This document shows, piece by piece, positions 55,267 through 64,000 of a DNA stretch of 64,000 nucleotides. The translations under genes and the position numbers were made by a program. The stretch lies in IMG/VR virus record IMGVR_UViG_3300012153_000089, positions 64,001 through 128,000 of that record. One strand, written 5' to 3'. Each line of letters starts with the position of its first letter. Position 1 is the first letter of the stretch. Origin of the DNA: a virus. Lineage: Duplodnaviria; Heunggongvirae; Uroviricota; Caudoviricetes. The notes under the pieces were generated by a model. It saw nothing but the letters and a program-made list of their open reading frames with translations, was not told the origin of the DNA and did no database searches.

Positions 55267-56046
55267 ATGAAAACAATTACGATTGCTGCACCTGTAAGGA
55301 ATAGAGAATGGATTCTGCCAAATTATCTGTTGAGAATAATCGAGATAAACTATCCCAAATCACTGATCGATCTACATTTTGTAGTTAATGATAGTGCAGA
55401 TAGAACGTTTGAGCTTTTAAATGAATTTAAGAAGGACAATAAAGGACTATATAACAACATTAGAATTGATGTAATCAATCAGAACGTTCCCAATGATGAA
55501 AGAGAGTTTGCCGTTAGAAACAGTCATATATATAAGCATTTGAGTAACTTAAAGAATTACATTATGAGCAAAGTTCGAACCGATAAATTGATTTTTATCG
55601 ACACAGATATTCTTGTTGAACCTAATGTCGTTACTAAGTTACTTAAACACGGCAAAAAGATCATTTCAGGTTTGATTTTTAATGGATATCTAACTAGTAA
55701 TGATAAACCTTATTTATATCCAAATATCATGCAGTTGGATGATAAGGGACAATATCGACATTTGACAAATTACCATGTCAAAACTGCCCCCACCTTACTT
55801 TGTTCTAGATTACAACGAGTGGATTTAACAGGGGCAATTATATTATTGGATAGGTCGGTTTATAAGTCCGTAAAATACGGATTTCATCCACAAGGTGAGG
55901 ACGCATACTTCTGTAAGATGGCTCAAGACAACGGTTTTGAGCTTTTTTGTGATTTAAGCGTTTATTGTCAGCACATTATGTCACCAGAATATCTAAAGGA
56001 GTTTATTAATGAAGCAAAAAACAATACTGTACTTTCCTGTCCTTAA
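55267..56046 (+). CDS. GT2-family glycosyltransferase
   Basis: AAPVRNRE, VVNDSAD, FIDTD (DxD), GEDAYFC. Confidence 0.85.
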   Translation: MKTITIAAPVRNREWILPNYLLRIIEINYPKSLIDLHFVVNDSADRTFELLNEFKKDNKGLYNNIRIDVINQNVPNDEREFAVRNSHIYKHLSNLKNYIMSKVRTDKLIFIDTDILVEPNVVTKLLKHGKKIISGLIFNGYLTSNDKPYLYPNIMQLDDKGQYRHLTNYHVKTAPTLLCSRLQRVDLTGAIILLDRSVYKSVKYGFHPQGEDAYFCKMAQDNGFELFCDLSVYCQHIMSPEYLKEFINEAKNNTVLSCP

Positions 56047-57016
56047 CTGGAGCTTTCTGAAGCAACGCCCCCAACAAATTCTTTCTCAGTTCGCTCGCAA
56101 TGGATGGACTGTTTACTTTTGTAATAATACCCAAACCGATGACCCTATTGAGGAAGTTGAGCCCAACCTACTTGTTGTACATAACTTCGAGAATTTAATG
56201 CGAGATATTAAATATGGAAAAATTAAAATTGATGTCGCTTATGCTACTTGGGCTAAATCTGCTGAGTATTTTGATCGAGTTAACGCAAAAATTAATATAT
56301 ATGACAGTATTGATGAATTCCCAGATTGGGCTTCATACGAAGAGTTCGCTGTAAATAGTGCTGACATTGTTCTGACTTCCAGTCAAAGACTATACGATAT
56401 TCGCAGTGTAATGCATGACAACGTACATCTTGTTAGAAATGCAGCTCCTTCTGAATATATTAATAGAGAGTCAACAAAGCCAGAAGAATATAAAAATATC
56501 GATGGGCCAATCGTAGCATTTATTGGTGCCTTGGGATCTTGGACAAGTACATATCTGATCAAAAAGGTTGCCGAAAGATATCCTACTGTGTTTGTGGGAT
56601 TAGAGTTTGGAAAGCAATGTCCCTCAAATGTAATAAATCTAGGATGCAAGAACCACGATGAACTATACGATTATTACGCTCATGCAGATGTATGCCTTAT
56701 TCCCTTTAATACAAAAACAAATATTACTCAATCCGCTTCTCCTGTAAAAATGTATGAGCACTTAGCCGCTGGTACAGTCACGGTAGCTACAAAGTGGCAT
56801 GAAACCGATCTTTATCCTTCCGCTGTACTCACAGCAGATAATGATGATGAGTTTTTAACTAAAATTGACGAAGCAATTGCTCTATCTAAATCTAATGGTA
56901 TCAAAGAGGAAGCTAAACGTATTGCTCTAGAAAATACTTGGGAAGTGCGCTATTCACAAATTGAGGAAGCCATCGCGAATTACACAGTGAAAAGTGGTGT
57001 TGTTCTTGAAGCTTAG
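56009..57016 (+). CDS. GT-B (GT4/TuaH-like) glycosyltransferase
   Basis: QRPQQI, YDSIDEF, VAFIGAL, DVCLIPF...SPVKMYEHLAAG. Confidence 0.85.
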   Translation: MKQKTILYFPVLNWSFLKQRPQQILSQFARNGWTVYFCNNTQTDDPIEEVEPNLLVVHNFENLMRDIKYGKIKIDVAYATWAKSAEYFDRVNAKINIYDSIDEFPDWASYEEFAVNSADIVLTSSQRLYDIRSVMHDNVHLVRNAAPSEYINRESTKPEEYKNIDGPIVAFIGALGSWTSTYLIKKVAERYPTVFVGLEFGKQCPSNVINLGCKNHDELYDYYAHADVCLIPFNTKTNITQSASPVKMYEHLAAGTVTVATKWHETDLYPSAVLTADNDDEFLTKIDEAIALSKSNGIKEEAKRIALENTWEVRYSQIEEAIANYTVKSGVVLEA

Positions 57017-57977
57017 AATTCTTTGTACCAACAACTCGCAATTAATTAAACAAGGCATTGCGTCGGGTTTTGGAAATCATGGTCACGAAGTATTTATTAT
57101 GGAGGGACCCTACCAGCTTTGGGATAAACCTAAAGAAATTCAGGTTGAATTGTTTAAAGAATTTATCGAAAGCCACTCAATTGATATGGTTTTTTCTGAG
57201 TGTTTTGCTAACTTTGCTGAAGATATTTTTGAATATACAAAAGCGAAAGGTATTTTTCATGCTTATTGGGCAATTGAAGATACCCCACATGACCATTGGA
57301 TAGGCGATCACTGGTCTAACTATGCTGATTACATCTTTACAACTACAGCAGAATGTCTGCCTAACTATTGGAATAAAGGTAAGCCTGCTGAATTAATGCT
57401 TTTCGGATGTAATCCTACTTTTCACAAACAGGTTACAACAGAAATCCATAGAGATATTGTTTTGATAGCGAATAATTACGAGCGTAGAGCCAACCAAACT
57501 AAGAACTACATCCTGCCAGTTGTAGAGCATGGGTTTGATGTAAGTATTTACGGCAATGAATGGTGGATGGATTCCGATCGTGAAACAAATTTATTAAAAC
57601 ACTCTGAGGTTTACAAGGGTTATGGTGCTTATGAAGATTTACCATATTTATATTCATCTAGTAACATCATTCTTGGTCAAAATTTAGATGACCAGTCTAT
57701 TACACAGACTTCAATGAGACCATTTGAAGCATTGGCTGTTGGTGGAGGAATATTGGTATCCCCTTATACCCCTGCGCAAGAGTATTTGTTCCATGAGCAT
57801 ATTTATCTCCCTAGAAATACAGACGAAATTCTCCTAATGGTTCAAGAAGTATTAAATATGACTGATAGACAACGACGCATAAAAGCCAAGAAGGCTCAGA
57901 AATTTGTATATAAATATCATAATTATGATCTAAGAGCAGAACAAGTGATCAATGCATATCACGGACATAAATCTTAA
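56994..57977 (+). CDS. CgeB/YkvP-family glycosyltransferase
   Basis: YWAIEDTP, DYIFTT, LMLFGCNP, SMRPFEALAVGG. Confidence 0.8.
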   Translation: MVLFLKLRILCTNNSQLIKQGIASGFGNHGHEVFIMEGPYQLWDKPKEIQVELFKEFIESHSIDMVFSECFANFAEDIFEYTKAKGIFHAYWAIEDTPHDHWIGDHWSNYADYIFTTTAECLPNYWNKGKPAELMLFGCNPTFHKQVTTEIHRDIVLIANNYERRANQTKNYILPVVEHGFDVSIYGNEWWMDSDRETNLLKHSEVYKGYGAYEDLPYLYSSSNIILGQNLDDQSITQTSMRPFEALAVGGGILVSPYTPAQEYLFHEHIYLPRNTDEILLMVQEVLNMTDRQRRIKAKKAQKFVYKYHNYDLRAEQVINAYHGHKS

Positions 57978-58957: not shown

Positions 58958-59959
58958 ATGAGTAAAAAAGAAGTTAAGCAAAACACATTGCGAGAACCAG
59001 CCAAGAAACAAGCAGAAGTAACAGAGGAAATGTGGCTTCAAGTTAACGAAGACTATAGGGTAATCGCTGAAGAGTTCGTTTCAGTACAAGATCTCTCCCC
59101 CGCATCACGAAAGCAATATACAAGTGTGATACGTCAGTTTGGATGGTACATGGTAAACTCCATGAACAACAAGCCTTTCTATAAGATCACAAAACGCGAT
59201 TTTTTAAGATACCTCAGTTACATACGCGACAATAGAAAAATGTCTTCCTCTGCAATAGGACTCCGTAAATCTGTCATCTCCAGTCTTTGCAACCACATTG
59301 AGAACATCATTGCCGAAGAAGAAGAGAACTATAAACAGTTTAGAAATTTCACTCGTGGCCTCCCTCCTATCGCAAAAAACCGTGTCTATGAAAAAGTCAA
59401 AGTAACTAAAGATGAGTATGACATGTTAATGAGCGTCCTTGAAGAAGATGAAAATTGGCTAGGTATGGCATGGCTTGCGACAGCGTTTAGAGTTGGGGCA
59501 AGACGGTCAGAGATTATCCAGTTCAAAACCGAAATTCTAGACTATAAGATCCCTGAAGGACAGAACTATATAACCTCTCATACAGTTAGGGGTAAGGGAA
59601 AATCCATAGATGGTAAACCTTTACAATATATGTTCCCTCTTGATGTTATTCCTCATATTCAAAAGTGGATCAGTACTCGTGGGTACGAGAGTGAGTATAT
59701 TTTTACCACAAAATACGGCAATGAGATTAAGCCAATGTCAGCAGCATGGGCAGATGATTTTTGTTCCAACACACTGTCAGACATTTTAGAGCGAAGAGTT
59801 AACGTACATATATTTAAGAATTCATGTATTACATATCTATTGGAGTCAGGCGTTGACATTAATTTGGTTTCTAAATTCGTAGCACATCACAATGACATCT
59901 CAACAACATCAATTTATGATTTGCGCGATTTTGAAGATGAGAAAAATCAAATTTTCTAA
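58958..59959 (+). CDS. YomM-like tyrosine recombinase
   Basis: GARRSEI (R), GKGK, VHIFK (HxxK), HHNDISTTSIY; SPbeta-like position before tape measure. Confidence 0.75.
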   Translation: MSKKEVKQNTLREPAKKQAEVTEEMWLQVNEDYRVIAEEFVSVQDLSPASRKQYTSVIRQFGWYMVNSMNNKPFYKITKRDFLRYLSYIRDNRKMSSSAIGLRKSVISSLCNHIENIIAEEEENYKQFRNFTRGLPPIAKNRVYEKVKVTKDEYDMLMSVLEEDENWLGMAWLATAFRVGARRSEIIQFKTEILDYKIPEGQNYITSHTVRGKGKSIDGKPLQYMFPLDVIPHIQKWISTRGYESEYIFTTKYGNEIKPMSAAWADDFCSNTLSDILERRVNVHIFKNSCITYLLESGVDINLVSKFVAHHNDISTTSIYDLRDFEDEKNQIF

Positions 59960-59988: not shown

Positions 59989-60423
59989 TTGATTTTAAGG
60001 GAGCAAAAAATGAAAATACATAATTATCAACTTGAGCCAGTAGCTTCTTACCTCCACTCACTCAATTTGGAGCGTAAGGCGTCGCGACTTCGAACTAGAT
60101 TCAAGAACATAATTCTTGAAAGACTTCAAACAGTATTAAATGAAGTCAATGAAATCAATAAAGAATACTTAATCTTAGATGAACATGGTCAACCGCTAAT
60201 GAATGAAAAAGGCTATCTATTTAAAGATGACGTTAAAAGATTGAAAGACATTAACGAACTCTATTACGAAACGTTTACCATTGAACAAAATGAAAATAAT
60301 AGAGCAATGTTGGAGTCAGTAAAAGAGAGTGTTAATAACCACTCCCCTCTTTCGTTTGAAGGAAATGAGGCAGATATCTATGACATGGTGTGTGAATTGG
60401 TTGAGCAAATTGAATATGAGTAA
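59989..60423 (+). CDS. DUF1617-like hypothetical protein (likely start 60010)
   Basis: L.SL.L..KASRLRTRF..I; preceded by junction palindrome at 59970. Confidence 0.5.
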   Translation: MILREQKMKIHNYQLEPVASYLHSLNLERKASRLRTRFKNIILERLQTVLNEVNEINKEYLILDEHGQPLMNEKGYLFKDDVKRLKDINELYYETFTIEQNENNRAMLESVKESVNNHSPLSFEGNEADIYDMVCELVEQIEYE

Positions 60424-60505
60424 ACATTGGGAAGCGATCATTTGAATCGCTTCTTTTTTATTTCTCTTTAGATATTAGAAGCAAAAAGGAAGTGATTTAA
60501 GTAAT

Positions 60506-63134
60506 ATGAGTCAAGATTTACGTATCTTAATTGATAGTGCATTAAACGTTGGTAGTTCAATTAAGAACATCAACAACGATATCAAGGCTTTGGCCTCCCA
60601 TCCCTCTCTCAAATCTTTGAATTTGAAAGTGGATATTGATAAGTCATTTGTTAAGTCCATGAATGACTTTGTGGCGGCAACTAAGATATTGAGTACTGCA
60701 CTAGAACAACAGCAAAAGGTAATTAATGAGTCAGTTAAGACCACTAAGATGTTGGATGGCTCTATAGAGAAAGTAACACAGAAACAATTAGCCAACGGCT
60801 CAATCATCACGCAGACCACCAAAAAGATAAATGAAGAAACTAAAGCTTATAGTGAACAAAAGAAAACACTACAGCAACTTGAAAAAGAGTTAGACGGGTA
60901 TTCTCTAGCTAGAACTAGAGCCAATAAAAATAAACTTGGCGAAATCAATAGCACAACCAATACATATAAAAATCAGGCTGGTCAACAAGTAAGCGTCAAT
61001 GTAGACAACGAAGGTAACGTTAAGAACTACAGTCAAATAACTGATTATCTTAAGCAACAACAAGATGCGTTACAAAAAGAGCAAGCGATAAATAAGCAGC
61101 GTGAACAAGCAGCTCAACAAGAATATGCAACTCGAAAAGCATTAGCGGATAAGAATCTCAAAGAAGAAGAACAGCGCAATCAACAGTTTCTTGCTCAATT
61201 ACGTACTCGGTTTGCTGAGGAGCAAAAAATTGCTCGTGATCGTGATGCATTAGATAAAGCACATGCAGCGGCAATGACTGAGAATTTAAATAGACAAAAA
61301 GCAGTTGCAGATATGGAAGCAAAAATTGCTTCAGCTAAAACTAAGTTCTCAGGGAATGCATCTGCTGTAGCCGAGTTGAATGCTTTAAATGCTCAATTAG
61401 GAAATGTGTCAAAGGTTAGTAATTACAAAAATGCGTTAACAGAGTTGCAGACCAAACTAACACAAATAACCAGTCAAGCGAAATTAGCAGGAAATGAAGC
61501 TAAGACACTTGGAGAACGCTTTGCGAATGCTGCATCTAAAGTTGCATTATGGACAGGTGCTACATCTTCCATTTACATGACAATCAGAGCGTTGAAAGAT
61601 ATGACTAATGTCATTATCCAAGTAGATAGTCAGATGACACAGTTGAAACGTGTAATGGATGAGTCAACTGATTTTGAAGGCATGTTGAGTCGTAGTATTC
61701 AGTTGGCAAATGAACTAGGTCGAAGCATTACTGAGGTAAATGAGAATGCAATTGGTTTTGCTCGTATGGGATTCGATGAAGATCAAACTATGAATCTTGC
61801 AAAGACATCAACGCTATTGCAGAACATATCTGAATTAACACCTCAAGAATCAGTAGATACATTAACAGCGGCGATGACAATATTTAATGTTGAAGCTGGG
61901 AAGAGTATTGAAATTGCGAATAAGTTGAACGAGATTAAATTCGGTCTCCTCATGTAGTAATGCATGTAGAAAAACCTTTTCTGATTGACTTGGATCTCCC
62001 ACTGGGACAACAAGGGGCAAGTTTAAATACAGCCTGAACGACTGAGTGAAAAGGCTCCACTAATTAGTGGATGAAGCGACAGTCTGGACACTATAGAAAT
62101 ATAGTGAGAAGCGCTCAAGTGTAAAGACACTTTTGGAAGAAGTGCTTCCGCTACGATTATTGTAGTCAGTAGGACAATAAACGTCTGAAAGTAACAGATA
62201 TAGCGATAACAACTTCGCAGTGACAACTCAAAACTTAGCATTATCAATGACAAGAGCAGGAGCAAGTGCAAATACATTCGGTGGGGCCATAGCCCAAGCC
62301 GCCTAGTCGAGTGATCGATTAGTGAACAGTCAGCCATATCGGGAAACGTCTAGGGATAGATAATTCCGAGGAAAGAGCTATATAAATTAGAATTTATGTA
62401 GCAATCCGTAACGACTAAGTAGTTATAATGGTGACATTATAACTCTACGCTGACTATCTTCCACCCCCTACTACGGAAGATAAAGATAGAGTCTGGTCTG
62501 CATCTATAATCCATTAAGTATTAACTTAATACCAGAAAATGCAGAGGCAAGCAGAAATGACTTGCCCCCTCTACCAGTTAGAGGAGTAACAAATCGGTAT
62601 CAATGGAAGAATTATTGGGACATACAACCGCAATTGCTACAGCTACAAGAGAATCGGGATCAGTGATCGGTAAACTCGTTGCCGCCTAGTATGGGGACAT
62701 ATTAGTGAAAATCTCTACTTATTGACTTGGAAATCCTTATGGGATGACAGGGGGCAAGTTTAAATACAGCCTGAACGACTAAGTGTAGAGATGTCCAGAA
62801 CGGACAATGCGATAGTCTGAGCATCTATGGAAACATAGAGAGAAGTACTCAAGTGTAAAGACACTTATAGAAGAAGTACTTCCGCTGTACTTTTAGTATA
62901 GTCAGTAGGATATTTATAATATCTGAAAGTAACAGATTGAACTCACTGAAATCAATTTATTCTCGTATCACAACTATGGATAAATCCGAAGAAGTATTGG
63001 CCGCTGCTGGTGTTTCAATGAAAGATTTAAATGGTGAAACTCGTGGAGTAGCCGACATTATGGCTGAACTAGCAAGCAAATGGAACGGATTGTCCAAAGA
63101 AACACAACAAAGCACAGCAGTGAATCTGGCGGGT
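60506..63134 (+). CDS. tail tape measure protein, spliced: exons 60506-61935, 62204-62282, 62597-62671, 62940-63134 (continues beyond window)
   Basis: Joined exons read ...KLNEI-DNNFAVTTQNLALSMTRAGASANTFG-VSMEELLGHTTAIATATRESGSVIG-NSLKSIYSRI..., a continuous TP901-type TMP domain. Confidence 0.9.
61936..62203 (+). mobile_element. group I intron 1 (268 nt, no ORF)
   Basis: Exon ends in U, intron ends in G; P1 GAGAU/GUCUC with U-G pair; AACGACUGAG and ACAGUCUG core. Confidence 0.85.
62283..62596 (+). mobile_element. group I intron 2 (314 nt, no ORF)
   Basis: CAUAUCGGGAAAC, AACGACUAAG, AAGAUAGAGUCUG core elements; terminal G. Confidence 0.85.
62672..62939 (+). mobile_element. group I intron 3 (268 nt, paralogue of intron 1)
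   Basis: P1 UCGGU/GCCG; GAUAGUCUG; shares a 30-nt identical block with intron 1; terminal G. Confidence 0.85.
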
Positions 63135-64000
63135 TAAAATAACGGCCCCACAGTCAAGTGATTGACTGTTGCAAAGTCAACCATATCGGTGAACACCTTA
63201 ACGCATAATGGCGAAGGCAATACCGAGGTAAGGCGTCTTGTGAGAGAGACAATTAGAATTGGAGAATGATAAAAATAGAAAAAGAAATTGAGTTGAGTAT
63301 CGTTGAAGATTACAAGAACGGATTAAAGCGTAAATATATTTGCGAAAAATACAAAATCGCAAATTTCTATAAGATACTTGAAAAATATGATGTGCCACGA
63401 TTTAATAAGAAATGGACTCCAGACGAATTAGACAAACTTAATGAACTTTACCCAACTGAATCATGGGAATTAATTTTAAAAGAAATTAAAAGGTTTCCAA
63501 GAGCAGAAATAGCTCGAATGGCTTCTAAAATGAAAATAAGAAGAGAGAACTTTCAGTATACGAGCGAAGAGATTGAAGATTTCAAGAAGTATTATTGCGA
63601 AATGCCAACTAAGATTTTCATTGAAAGGTTTTTTCCTCATAGAACCGAATCAGCAATTCATAGTAAGGCCAGTAAACTGGGCTTAGTGTCAAGAGAGTCT
63701 TGGTCTGACAAAGAGAACGAAATACTCCAAAAATACTACCCTTCTTTATCAAACAAGACCATTCAAAATCTATACTTAAGCAATAGAAGTTTGAGCGCAA
63801 TCATGTGTCAAGCTGCGAATTTGGGCTTAAAAAAAGAAAAAACTAATACTCAATTTTCTAAAGAAGAGTTGATCTGCGCTCTTCGGCAACTTGCAGAAAA
63901 ATTAGGACGAACACCGACTCTTACAGATATCTCCATTTCTGAGGAAACACCTTCGCCAATGACCTATTACAGATATCTTGGTTCATACGAAAATGCCTGT
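63135..64000 (+). mobile_element. group I intron 4 (partial) carrying an ORF
   Basis: P1 GGGU/GCCC; CAUAUCGGUGAAC and AAUACCGAGG core elements, then a long ORF. Confidence 0.8.
63266..64000 (+). CDS. intron-encoded homing-endonuclease-like protein (partial)
   Basis: Not in ORF track (no stop in window). RBS GGAG; three Myb/SANT-like repeats (WTPDE, YTSEE, WSDKE) then SKEELI..L.QLAEKLGRTPT...TYYRYLGSYENA, an HNH-associated repeat. Confidence 0.7.
   Translation, partial: MIKIEKEIELSIVEDYKNGLKRKYICEKYKIANFYKILEKYDVPRFNKKWTPDELDKLNELYPTESWELILKEIKRFPRAEIARMASKMKIRRENFQYTSEEIEDFKKYYCEMPTKIFIERFFPHRTESAIHSKASKLGLVSRESWSDKENEILQKYYPSLSNKTIQNLYLSNRSLSAIMCQAANLGLKKEKTNTQFSKEELICALRQLAEKLGRTPTLTDISISEETPSPMTYYRYLGSYENAC

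Follow-up and report, generated by a model that had tools for sequence, protein, structure and literature searches.

The window analysed here, a stretch of 64,000 nt, covers positions 64001–128000 (G000:C1) of a 152.5-kb provirus that was rated 100% complete. It contains a gene for a tape-measure protein (TMP) that is split by group I introns. Upstream of this gene are YomO-, YomN- and integrase-like genes, as in an SPbeta-like morphogenesis region. The first exon shows about 40% identity to YomI of SPbeta and matches the TMP family phrog_4211 (E 4e-58). The split gene is the YomI-like TMP gene, the tail-length gene, of an SPbeta-like prophage. Of the relatives whose host is named, the closest are Paenibacillus prophages, and the host is therefore probably Paenibacillus as well.

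60506..61935, + strand: TMP exon 1, aa 1–477, ending 2 nt into codon 477
61936..62203, + strand: intron 1, 268 nt, without an ORF
62204..62282, + strand: TMP exon 2, 79 nt, aa 478–503
62283..62596, + strand: intron 2, 314 nt, without an ORF
62597..62671, + strand: TMP exon 3, 75 nt, aa 504–528
62672..62939, + strand: intron 3, 268 nt, without an ORF
62940..63134, + strand: TMP exon 4, 195 nt, aa 529–593, with a PF10145 match
63135..64000 and on to genome position 128556, + strand: intron 4, 1422 nt in total, 556 nt of it beyond the window
63266..64000, ending 402 nt beyond the window, + strand: intron 4 ORF, a 378-aa putative homing endonuclease
genome positions 128557–133581, outside the window, + strand: TMP exon 5, aa 594–2267, with an SLT domain, unbroken

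The junctions that an earlier, sequence-only reading of this DNA had proposed are exact: exons end in U at 61935, 62282, 62671 and 63134, and introns end in G at 62203, 62596 and 62939. The sizes of the internal exons (79, 75 and 195 nt) were likewise borne out. Where that reading had counted at least four introns there are exactly four, as intron 4 ends at genome position 128556 and the last exon is then unbroken to 133581. Joining the exons at the U/G junctions gives the seamless TMP that had been expected, a frame of 6804 nt (2267 aa) with a single terminal stop and none internal. The joined protein and the intronless homologues L004 (88% identity over aa 401–680) and L008 (70% identity) can be aligned gap-free through all four junctions. 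The introns had been described as lying within 1.2 kb; this is true for the span of the 5' junctions, but the interrupted DNA measures 2.6 kb. In the spliced message, the four insertion sites fall inside 349 nt (CDS nt 1430–1779, aa 477–593). As any retained intron ends translation 1–22 nt in (intron 1 has an in-frame stop 20 nt from its start and intron 4 begins with TAA), all four must be spliced. This supports the proposal that TMP production needs several splicing steps, the need being four splicing events.

Core structure of the introns and their detection by Rfam

Two sets of observations point to group I introns at all four positions: the boundaries and the pairing. Among 33 group I introns from 19 TMP loci, a U...G pair was found in every case at the boundary indicated by protein homology (in L062 after a 2-nt shift), so that chance does not account for the U...G boundaries. 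A G as the last intron nucleotide is found in all four introns here and in all 33 related introns. The exon-terminal U is paired to a G of the P1 helix in all four introns, and P1 can thus be drawn with its U-G pair for each, as had been claimed. The further claim that intron 2 has the weakest P1 did not hold: its P1 consists of 4 bp, is GC-rich and has an extension. Each intron has a P3 of 6–8 bp and a P7 with a bulge and the G-C pair that forms the G site; P7 is fully paired (6/6) in introns 1, 3 and 4 and paired at 5/6 positions in intron 2, where the terminal pair is A.G.

The introns differ in their peripheral elements. P3 starts 3 nt after P7 in introns 1, 3 and 4, which lack P7.1/P7.2; as only 3 nt separate the two helices, these introns do not have the IA layout. 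Intron 2 carries a single P7.1-like hairpin in the 31 nt between P7 and P3. In intron 1, P1 is formed by 61931–61935/61944–61948, P3 by 61975–61981/62048–62054 and P7 by 62038–62044/62080–62085, with a 3-bp P10. Intron 4 has a 4-bp P1 and a 5-bp P10, and its ORF is inserted in the P6 region. No P10 was evident in intron 2, where a possible 3-bp P9.0 may fix the 3' end. P4 comprises 6 bp in introns 2 and 4, as read from the sequence and from the Rfam alignment of an orthologue. The P4 region of introns 1 and 3 is atypical, with four clear pairs and a longer J3/4, and their P6 covaries. These two introns are paralogues (77% identity) with differing P1, P2 and P3, whereas the other intron pairs are 53–69% identical.

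Ten aligned orthologues of introns 1 and 3 share a 58-pair structure that covers P1, P2, P3, P4, P6, P7, P8 and P9–P9.2, with 99.6% of the cells paired and changes on both sides at 32 of the 58 pairs. Alignments that were slid gave 31–47% paired cells and none of 500 shuffles reached the real value, although these controls flatter the result because the structure was drawn from one aligned member and the rows are related. The U.G pair of P1 is invariant in 10/10 orthologues and its neighbours change in a compensatory manner; at two pairs, P1 changes along with the exon. Base swaps on both strands also occur in P3, P6 and the final pair of P7.

The Rfam check that had been suggested succeeded in part. 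Intron 2, the only window intron that Rfam detects, matches RF00028 (32.3 bits, E 1.2e-7), but introns 1 and 3 were missed. At the gathering threshold there was no match in the whole window, none of its introns reaching 50 bits, and in E-value mode the sole match in 60000–64000 was to mcrA, by chance. Among the relatives, RF00028 scores 55.9 bits for the site-4 orthologue in L073, which is over the cut-off, and 40–49 bits for the introns at sites 1 and 3 of L069. The RF00028 model is known to miss some group I subgroups (PMC11878797). Rfam found no group II intron in the window, and the same scan does detect one in L060. No more introns of the group I type described here were found elsewhere in the provirus by model, by pattern or with RF00028.

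That introns 1 and 3 escape Rfam could also be expected if the TMP gene were a decaying pseudogene, or if the inserts remained unspliced and the prophage tail-defective. We give this reading barely any chance of being correct. All core helices of the introns are intact, and the terminase-, portal- and capsid-like ORFs of the provirus are uninterrupted. An intact TMP copy elsewhere, which the sequence-only reading had named as the observation that would speak against it, was sought throughout the 152.5-kb provirus and none was found. Moreover, exons 2–4 differ from those of the relative L015 by 31 synonymous changes and two amino acid changes, and the TMP gene is thus under purifying selection.

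Optional presence and probable homing in related phages

The TMP homologues that we fetched comprised 29 intronless and 20 split genes, the latter including the query. The 33 group I introns occupy the same four sites, with 9, 5, 13 and 6 introns at sites 1–4, respectively. Besides the query, all four sites are filled in L017, a prophage of Paenibacillus sp. Marseille-Q4541; the other patterns were 1+4, 1+3, 1+2+3, 1+3+4 and each of the four sites alone. About 13 of the 41 strong matches among 401 sampled Paenibacillaceae genomes had a split TMP, and a DNA search of 401 genomes of the order with intron 1 returned only TMP loci already in our set. In 13 close alleles, sites 1–4 are occupied 6, 3, 6 and 5 times. 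As independent presence at these frequencies predicts that about 2% of alleles contain all four introns, the two observed cases, one of which is the query, need no special cause.

This distribution bears on the proposal that splicing serves as a physiological checkpoint, in which the four splicing steps would tie tail assembly to GTP, Mg2+ or temperature to the benefit of the phage. The TMP would indeed be truncated if any intron were retained, and the idea of phage introns as sensors has been published as an unproven hypothesis (PMC11878797). However, the introns are optional: near-identical phages carry between zero and four of them in no fixed combination. We saw no ligand-binding or switch-like element in the introns, and dependence on splicing is something that any selfish intron imposes. 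The proposal is thus left without support, and we allow it a slight chance at most.

Further insertion sites surround the four described above. Geobacillus virus E3 and L085 carry a group I intron one codon past site 1, and L060 has its group II intron a few codons further on. L086 has an extra site at about aa 512, and L087 adds another two near aa 515 and aa 522; the three introns of L087 leave exons of 22 and 17 nt. Added to the four sites, these bring the total to nine or more insertion sites within some 120 codons of the TMP core, in which exons of 75–195 nt are not unusually small. Conservation at the four sites (0.51–0.63) is no higher than in the surrounding core (0.57). The possibility that the in-frame inserts of G254 and G361 are inteins was discarded, as both are group I introns at site 3. 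In the database records of the cultured phages GVE3 and MaeS, the TMP is split into separate ORFs and no intron is annotated.

An ORF was found in 10 of the 33 introns, each 1.1–1.5 kb long, and such introns occur at every site. The ORFs are of the DUF559/Vsr type at sites 1–3 (e.g., in the intron 2 orthologues of L006, L017 and L059) and contain PF18780 at site 4. Two different core types can be found at one and the same site, and one core is common to sites 1 and 3. The presence of introns and ORFs varies even between close relatives: L015 has 97–98% protein identity to the query and lacks introns 1–3, and its intron 4 has no ORF. At the DNA level, the two are 96–100% identical around site 4, compared to about 85% elsewhere.

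The intron 4 ORF, which encodes 378 aa from 63266, crosses the 5' strand of P7 and has its stop codon inside the 3' strand of P3. The protein has N-terminal Myb-like repeats and PF18780, a homing-endonuclease-associated repeat. The model of its C-terminal domain (pLDDT 83) resembles I-Bth0305I (PDB 3r3p; Z 8.6, rmsd 3.5 over 90 residues, 14% identity) more than any other nuclease compared, followed by TnsA (Z 8.1) and Vsr (Z 7.7), all of these scores being near the background level of 7–8 stated for the tool. A Foldseek search with the model of the full protein gave no significant match, and the nuclease domain modelled alone had a pLDDT of 36. Both the predicted fold and the DUF559/Vsr ORFs in the orthologues of introns 1–3 are reminiscent of I-Bth0305I. 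Unlike that enzyme, the intron 4 protein carries Myb-like repeats and lacks the EDxHD histidine; as no histidine is conserved among 17 aligned homologues, it is better described as PD-(D/E)xK/Vsr-like than as EDxHD. The invariant residues are S274, E277, D312 and E322. The homologues that could be traced also sit just inside split TMP genes. We regard the protein as a putative homing endonuclease.

Pairs of intron-bearing alleles share identical synonymous codons near sites 1–3 (0.67–0.81, compared to a background of 0.45–0.49), and the signal is weak at site 4 (0.52 compared to 0.49). These pairs are not independent, and the constraints of P1 and P10 could explain part of the sharing. Nevertheless, codon sharing beside sites 1–3 fits homing with co-conversion of the flanking exons.

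We consider it highly probable that these are four selfish group I introns that were acquired independently, spread by homing and self-splice so that a normal TMP is made. The boundaries, restored frame, paired structure, optional presence, nuclease-bearing versions, shared codons and selection on the exons are observed computationally; splicing itself, nuclease activity, the direction of gain and loss, and neutrality are what we infer. In the proposed scheme, introns would accumulate as selfish elements in the conserved core (the PF10145 region, aa 477–593) of the TMP gene, an essential gene. Each ribozyme would fold from the late transcript and bind an exogenous G in its P7; cleavage would follow the exon U of the P1 U.G pair, and ligation would take place at the terminal G. 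Splicing of all four introns would then yield the ordinary 2267-aa TMP. A nuclease encoded in the P6 loop would cut the intronless allele, and repair would copy the intron together with flanking exon sequence. Introns may lose their nuclease genes over time, as introns 1–3 here would have done, and could persist without them because only precise deletion is tolerated. As the exons are short, conversion tracts or ordinary recombination might carry neighbouring introns along.

Exon skipping, known systems and significance

The sequence-only reading had also suggested that exon skipping could vary tail length. In such a scenario, in-frame skipping of exon 3, and possibly of exon 4, would produce functional TMP isoforms, and thus at least two discrete tail lengths from one gene. 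The frame would be kept by loss of exon 3 (−25 aa, giving 2242 aa), of exon 4 (−65 aa, giving 2202 aa) or of the two together (−90 aa, giving 2177 aa). The likeliest route is that, once intron 2 has been spliced, the joined exons 2 and 3 offer intron 3 a distal 5' splice site at their junction. Exons 2 and 3 end in the same five bases, and introns 2 and 3 have an identical guide sequence. A stepwise distal-site mechanism has been demonstrated with engineered tandem introns (PMC10136302), and skipping is documented for 47% of SIOphi polymerase transcripts and for Twort orf142. As introns 2 and 3 share an exon end and a guide that offer this stepwise route, some low-level skipped RNA is plausible by analogy.

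Functional isoforms are another matter, and to these we assign only a small chance. The exon sizes merely equal the distances between insertion sites, and the loss of exon 2, alone or with others, shifts the frame and truncates the protein at 479–499 aa. No fetched allele lacks the skippable blocks, and in the 29 intronless homologues, which were selected as near full-length matches, block lengths are nearly invariant (26 aa against 26, 24–25 against 25, and mostly 65 against 65). The intron pairs needed for skipping are absent from most relatives. Tail length corresponds to about 0.15 nm per TMP residue, and skipping would therefore alter the tail by only about 4–13 nm. The suggestion thus finds no support in the alleles compared.

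How unusual are four selfish introns in a TMP gene? The TMP had been placed outside the known targets of phage introns, which is wrong: TMP introns were published in 2008 (PMC2504315), and one was shown to be spliced in 2023 (PMC10448857). Tourasse and Kolsto described TMP-IVS1, IVS2 and IVS3a/b in prophages of the Bacillus cereus group, with at most two per gene (PMC2504315). Like the introns described here, these are group I introns in prophage TMP genes that are patchily distributed, mostly free of nucleases and have early in-frame stops; similar introns are found at more than one site, and one site can host differing introns (PMC2504315). They belong to IA1/IA2 and occupy three sites in lambda01-like and other prophages (PMC2504315), whereas the four introns of the present SPbeta-like TMP are packed into 349 nt of its message, three of them (introns 1, 3 and 4) having no P7.1/P7.2 insert. 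In Vibrio phage ICP1, the TMP is split by a nuclease-bearing intron whose nuclease content varies between isolates (PMC10448857). Its transcript was shown to be spliced by RNA-seq and examined by RT-PCR, and the authors term the TMP a frequently interrupted gene (PMC10448857). Unlike the present case, ICP1 is an unrelated phage with one intron, HNH-type nucleases and demonstrated splicing (PMC10448857).

Staphylococcus phage Twort orf142 had been cited for its three introns as a contrast to the TMP. The count is correct, but orf142 is itself a tail gene, encoding the tail tube, and shows exon skipping (PMC11878797, PMC10136302), and so offers no contrast. As described there, it resembles the TMP gene in being a tail structural gene with several introns, two of them paralogous, and a short exon (23 nt). 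According to the same accounts, its introns are IA2, the phage is a lytic myovirus, and splicing and skipping are experimental, whereas splicing of the four introns here is predicted from sequence; the similar pair (introns 1 and 3) is not adjacent, unlike that of Twort, and skipping them jointly would shift the frame. The DNA polymerase and terminase genes of Bastillevirinae contain two or three group I introns (PMC11878797). These Bacillus phages also share several introns per gene, some Vsr-type nucleases and alternative splicing, but differ in the genes interrupted, in having at most three introns per gene and in intron type, mostly IA2/IA3 (PMC11878797). In mycobacteriophages, too, there are capsid and tail genes from which group I introns are spliced.

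The claim that four introns per gene is unusual therefore stands in part: it is one above the published maximum that we found, three, but the TMP was already known as a target. We found no published phage gene with four group I introns in a literature that we covered incompletely, and claim no record. What is new is quantitative, namely four introns in one gene compared to three in published cases found, a mapped hotspot and a core type that Rfam does not see. As relatives carry any subset of the introns or none, the locus represents a dense gathering of known selfish introns and not a new control mechanism, and its significance as it stands is modest. As introns 1 and 3 go undetected by Rfam, standard surveys undercount such introns. 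If functional tail-length isoforms were demonstrated, group I splicing would gain a new role. The TMP core (about 120 codons) of SPbeta-like phages is an intron hotspot, and its naturally occurring alleles, which range from intronless to four introns on near-identical backgrounds, form a series for testing whether introns are neutral, costly or regulatory. The same series is suited to measuring skipping between tandem ribozymes.

Genes around the introns

In the tail region, the genes beside the tape-measure gene (TMP) include the following:

window 55267-57977: three ORFs resembling glycosyltransferases (259, 335 and 327 aa), within the tail gene cluster
window 58958-59959: tyrosine recombinase (333 aa)

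In relatives, PF13524 is found in syntenic genes that match the 335- and 327-aa ORFs in size, and the recombinase is syntenic with SPbeta yomM.

A common 3' domain

Introns 1, 3 and 4 of the TMP and most of their orthologues end in a long, strongly covarying 3' domain, composed of P9, P9.1 (in which a side hairpin is optional), P9.2 and a conserved terminal motif. It covers ~120 nt at:

window 62086-62203: intron 1
window 62819-62939: intron 3
L001:4436-4557

The same domain occurs with two different P4 core types, and the introns that share it possibly represent an undescribed subgroup.

Interrupted TMP genes in other loci

Other loci also have TMP introns, one of them (L085) a probable one:

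L087:2833-5000 (JGI Ga0256900_1001382): TMP interrupted by three group I introns (288, 297 and 1544 nt)
L083:5900-7580 (JGI 3300051198): distant TMP (26%) with two introns
L085:4535-4794: second match to RF00028, the Rfam group I intron model (72 bits); the GVE3-type site lies ~430 nt downstream
L060:1644-2313 (-): group II intron without an ORF (~659 nt; genome location G122:C11)

In L087, exons of 22 and 17 nt lie between the three introns, the third of which holds a 420-aa frame after P7, and joining the exons restores the conserved motif. The L083 intron at approximately site 4 (the insertion site of intron 4) encodes a homologue of the putative intron 4 homing endonuclease, and a second, IA-like intron begins roughly 20 nt beyond it. 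The L085 match is probably a further TMP intron. The L060 intron matches group II models (RF02004, 104 bits; RF00029, 62 bits) and lies a few codons past site 1, inside a TMP gene of the prophage type; it is only recently that phage genes have been reported to carry group II introns (PMC12350094).

The site-3 introns of L062 (303 nt; G254) and L063 (300 nt; G361) apparently leave the TMP frame open, at about 2065-2077 aa with no stop. Unspliced RNA could therefore yield a read-through TMP that is ~100 residues longer.

TMP introns in named phages

L012:5477-6789: site-1 intron (1313 nt), phage MaeS (MT362618)
L097:1735-2038: IA-like group I intron (304 nt) splitting the TMP, Geobacillus virus E3 (KP144388)

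The MaeS intron, which is missing from the annotation, contains a DUF559/Vsr nuclease-type ORF. Oddly, this phage is recorded on Microcystis, yet its TMP is Bacillus-phage-like. The TMP of Geobacillus virus E3 is annotated just as N- and C-terminal ORFs (gp42/gp43). This cultured phage is suited to testing the splicing of a TMP intron.
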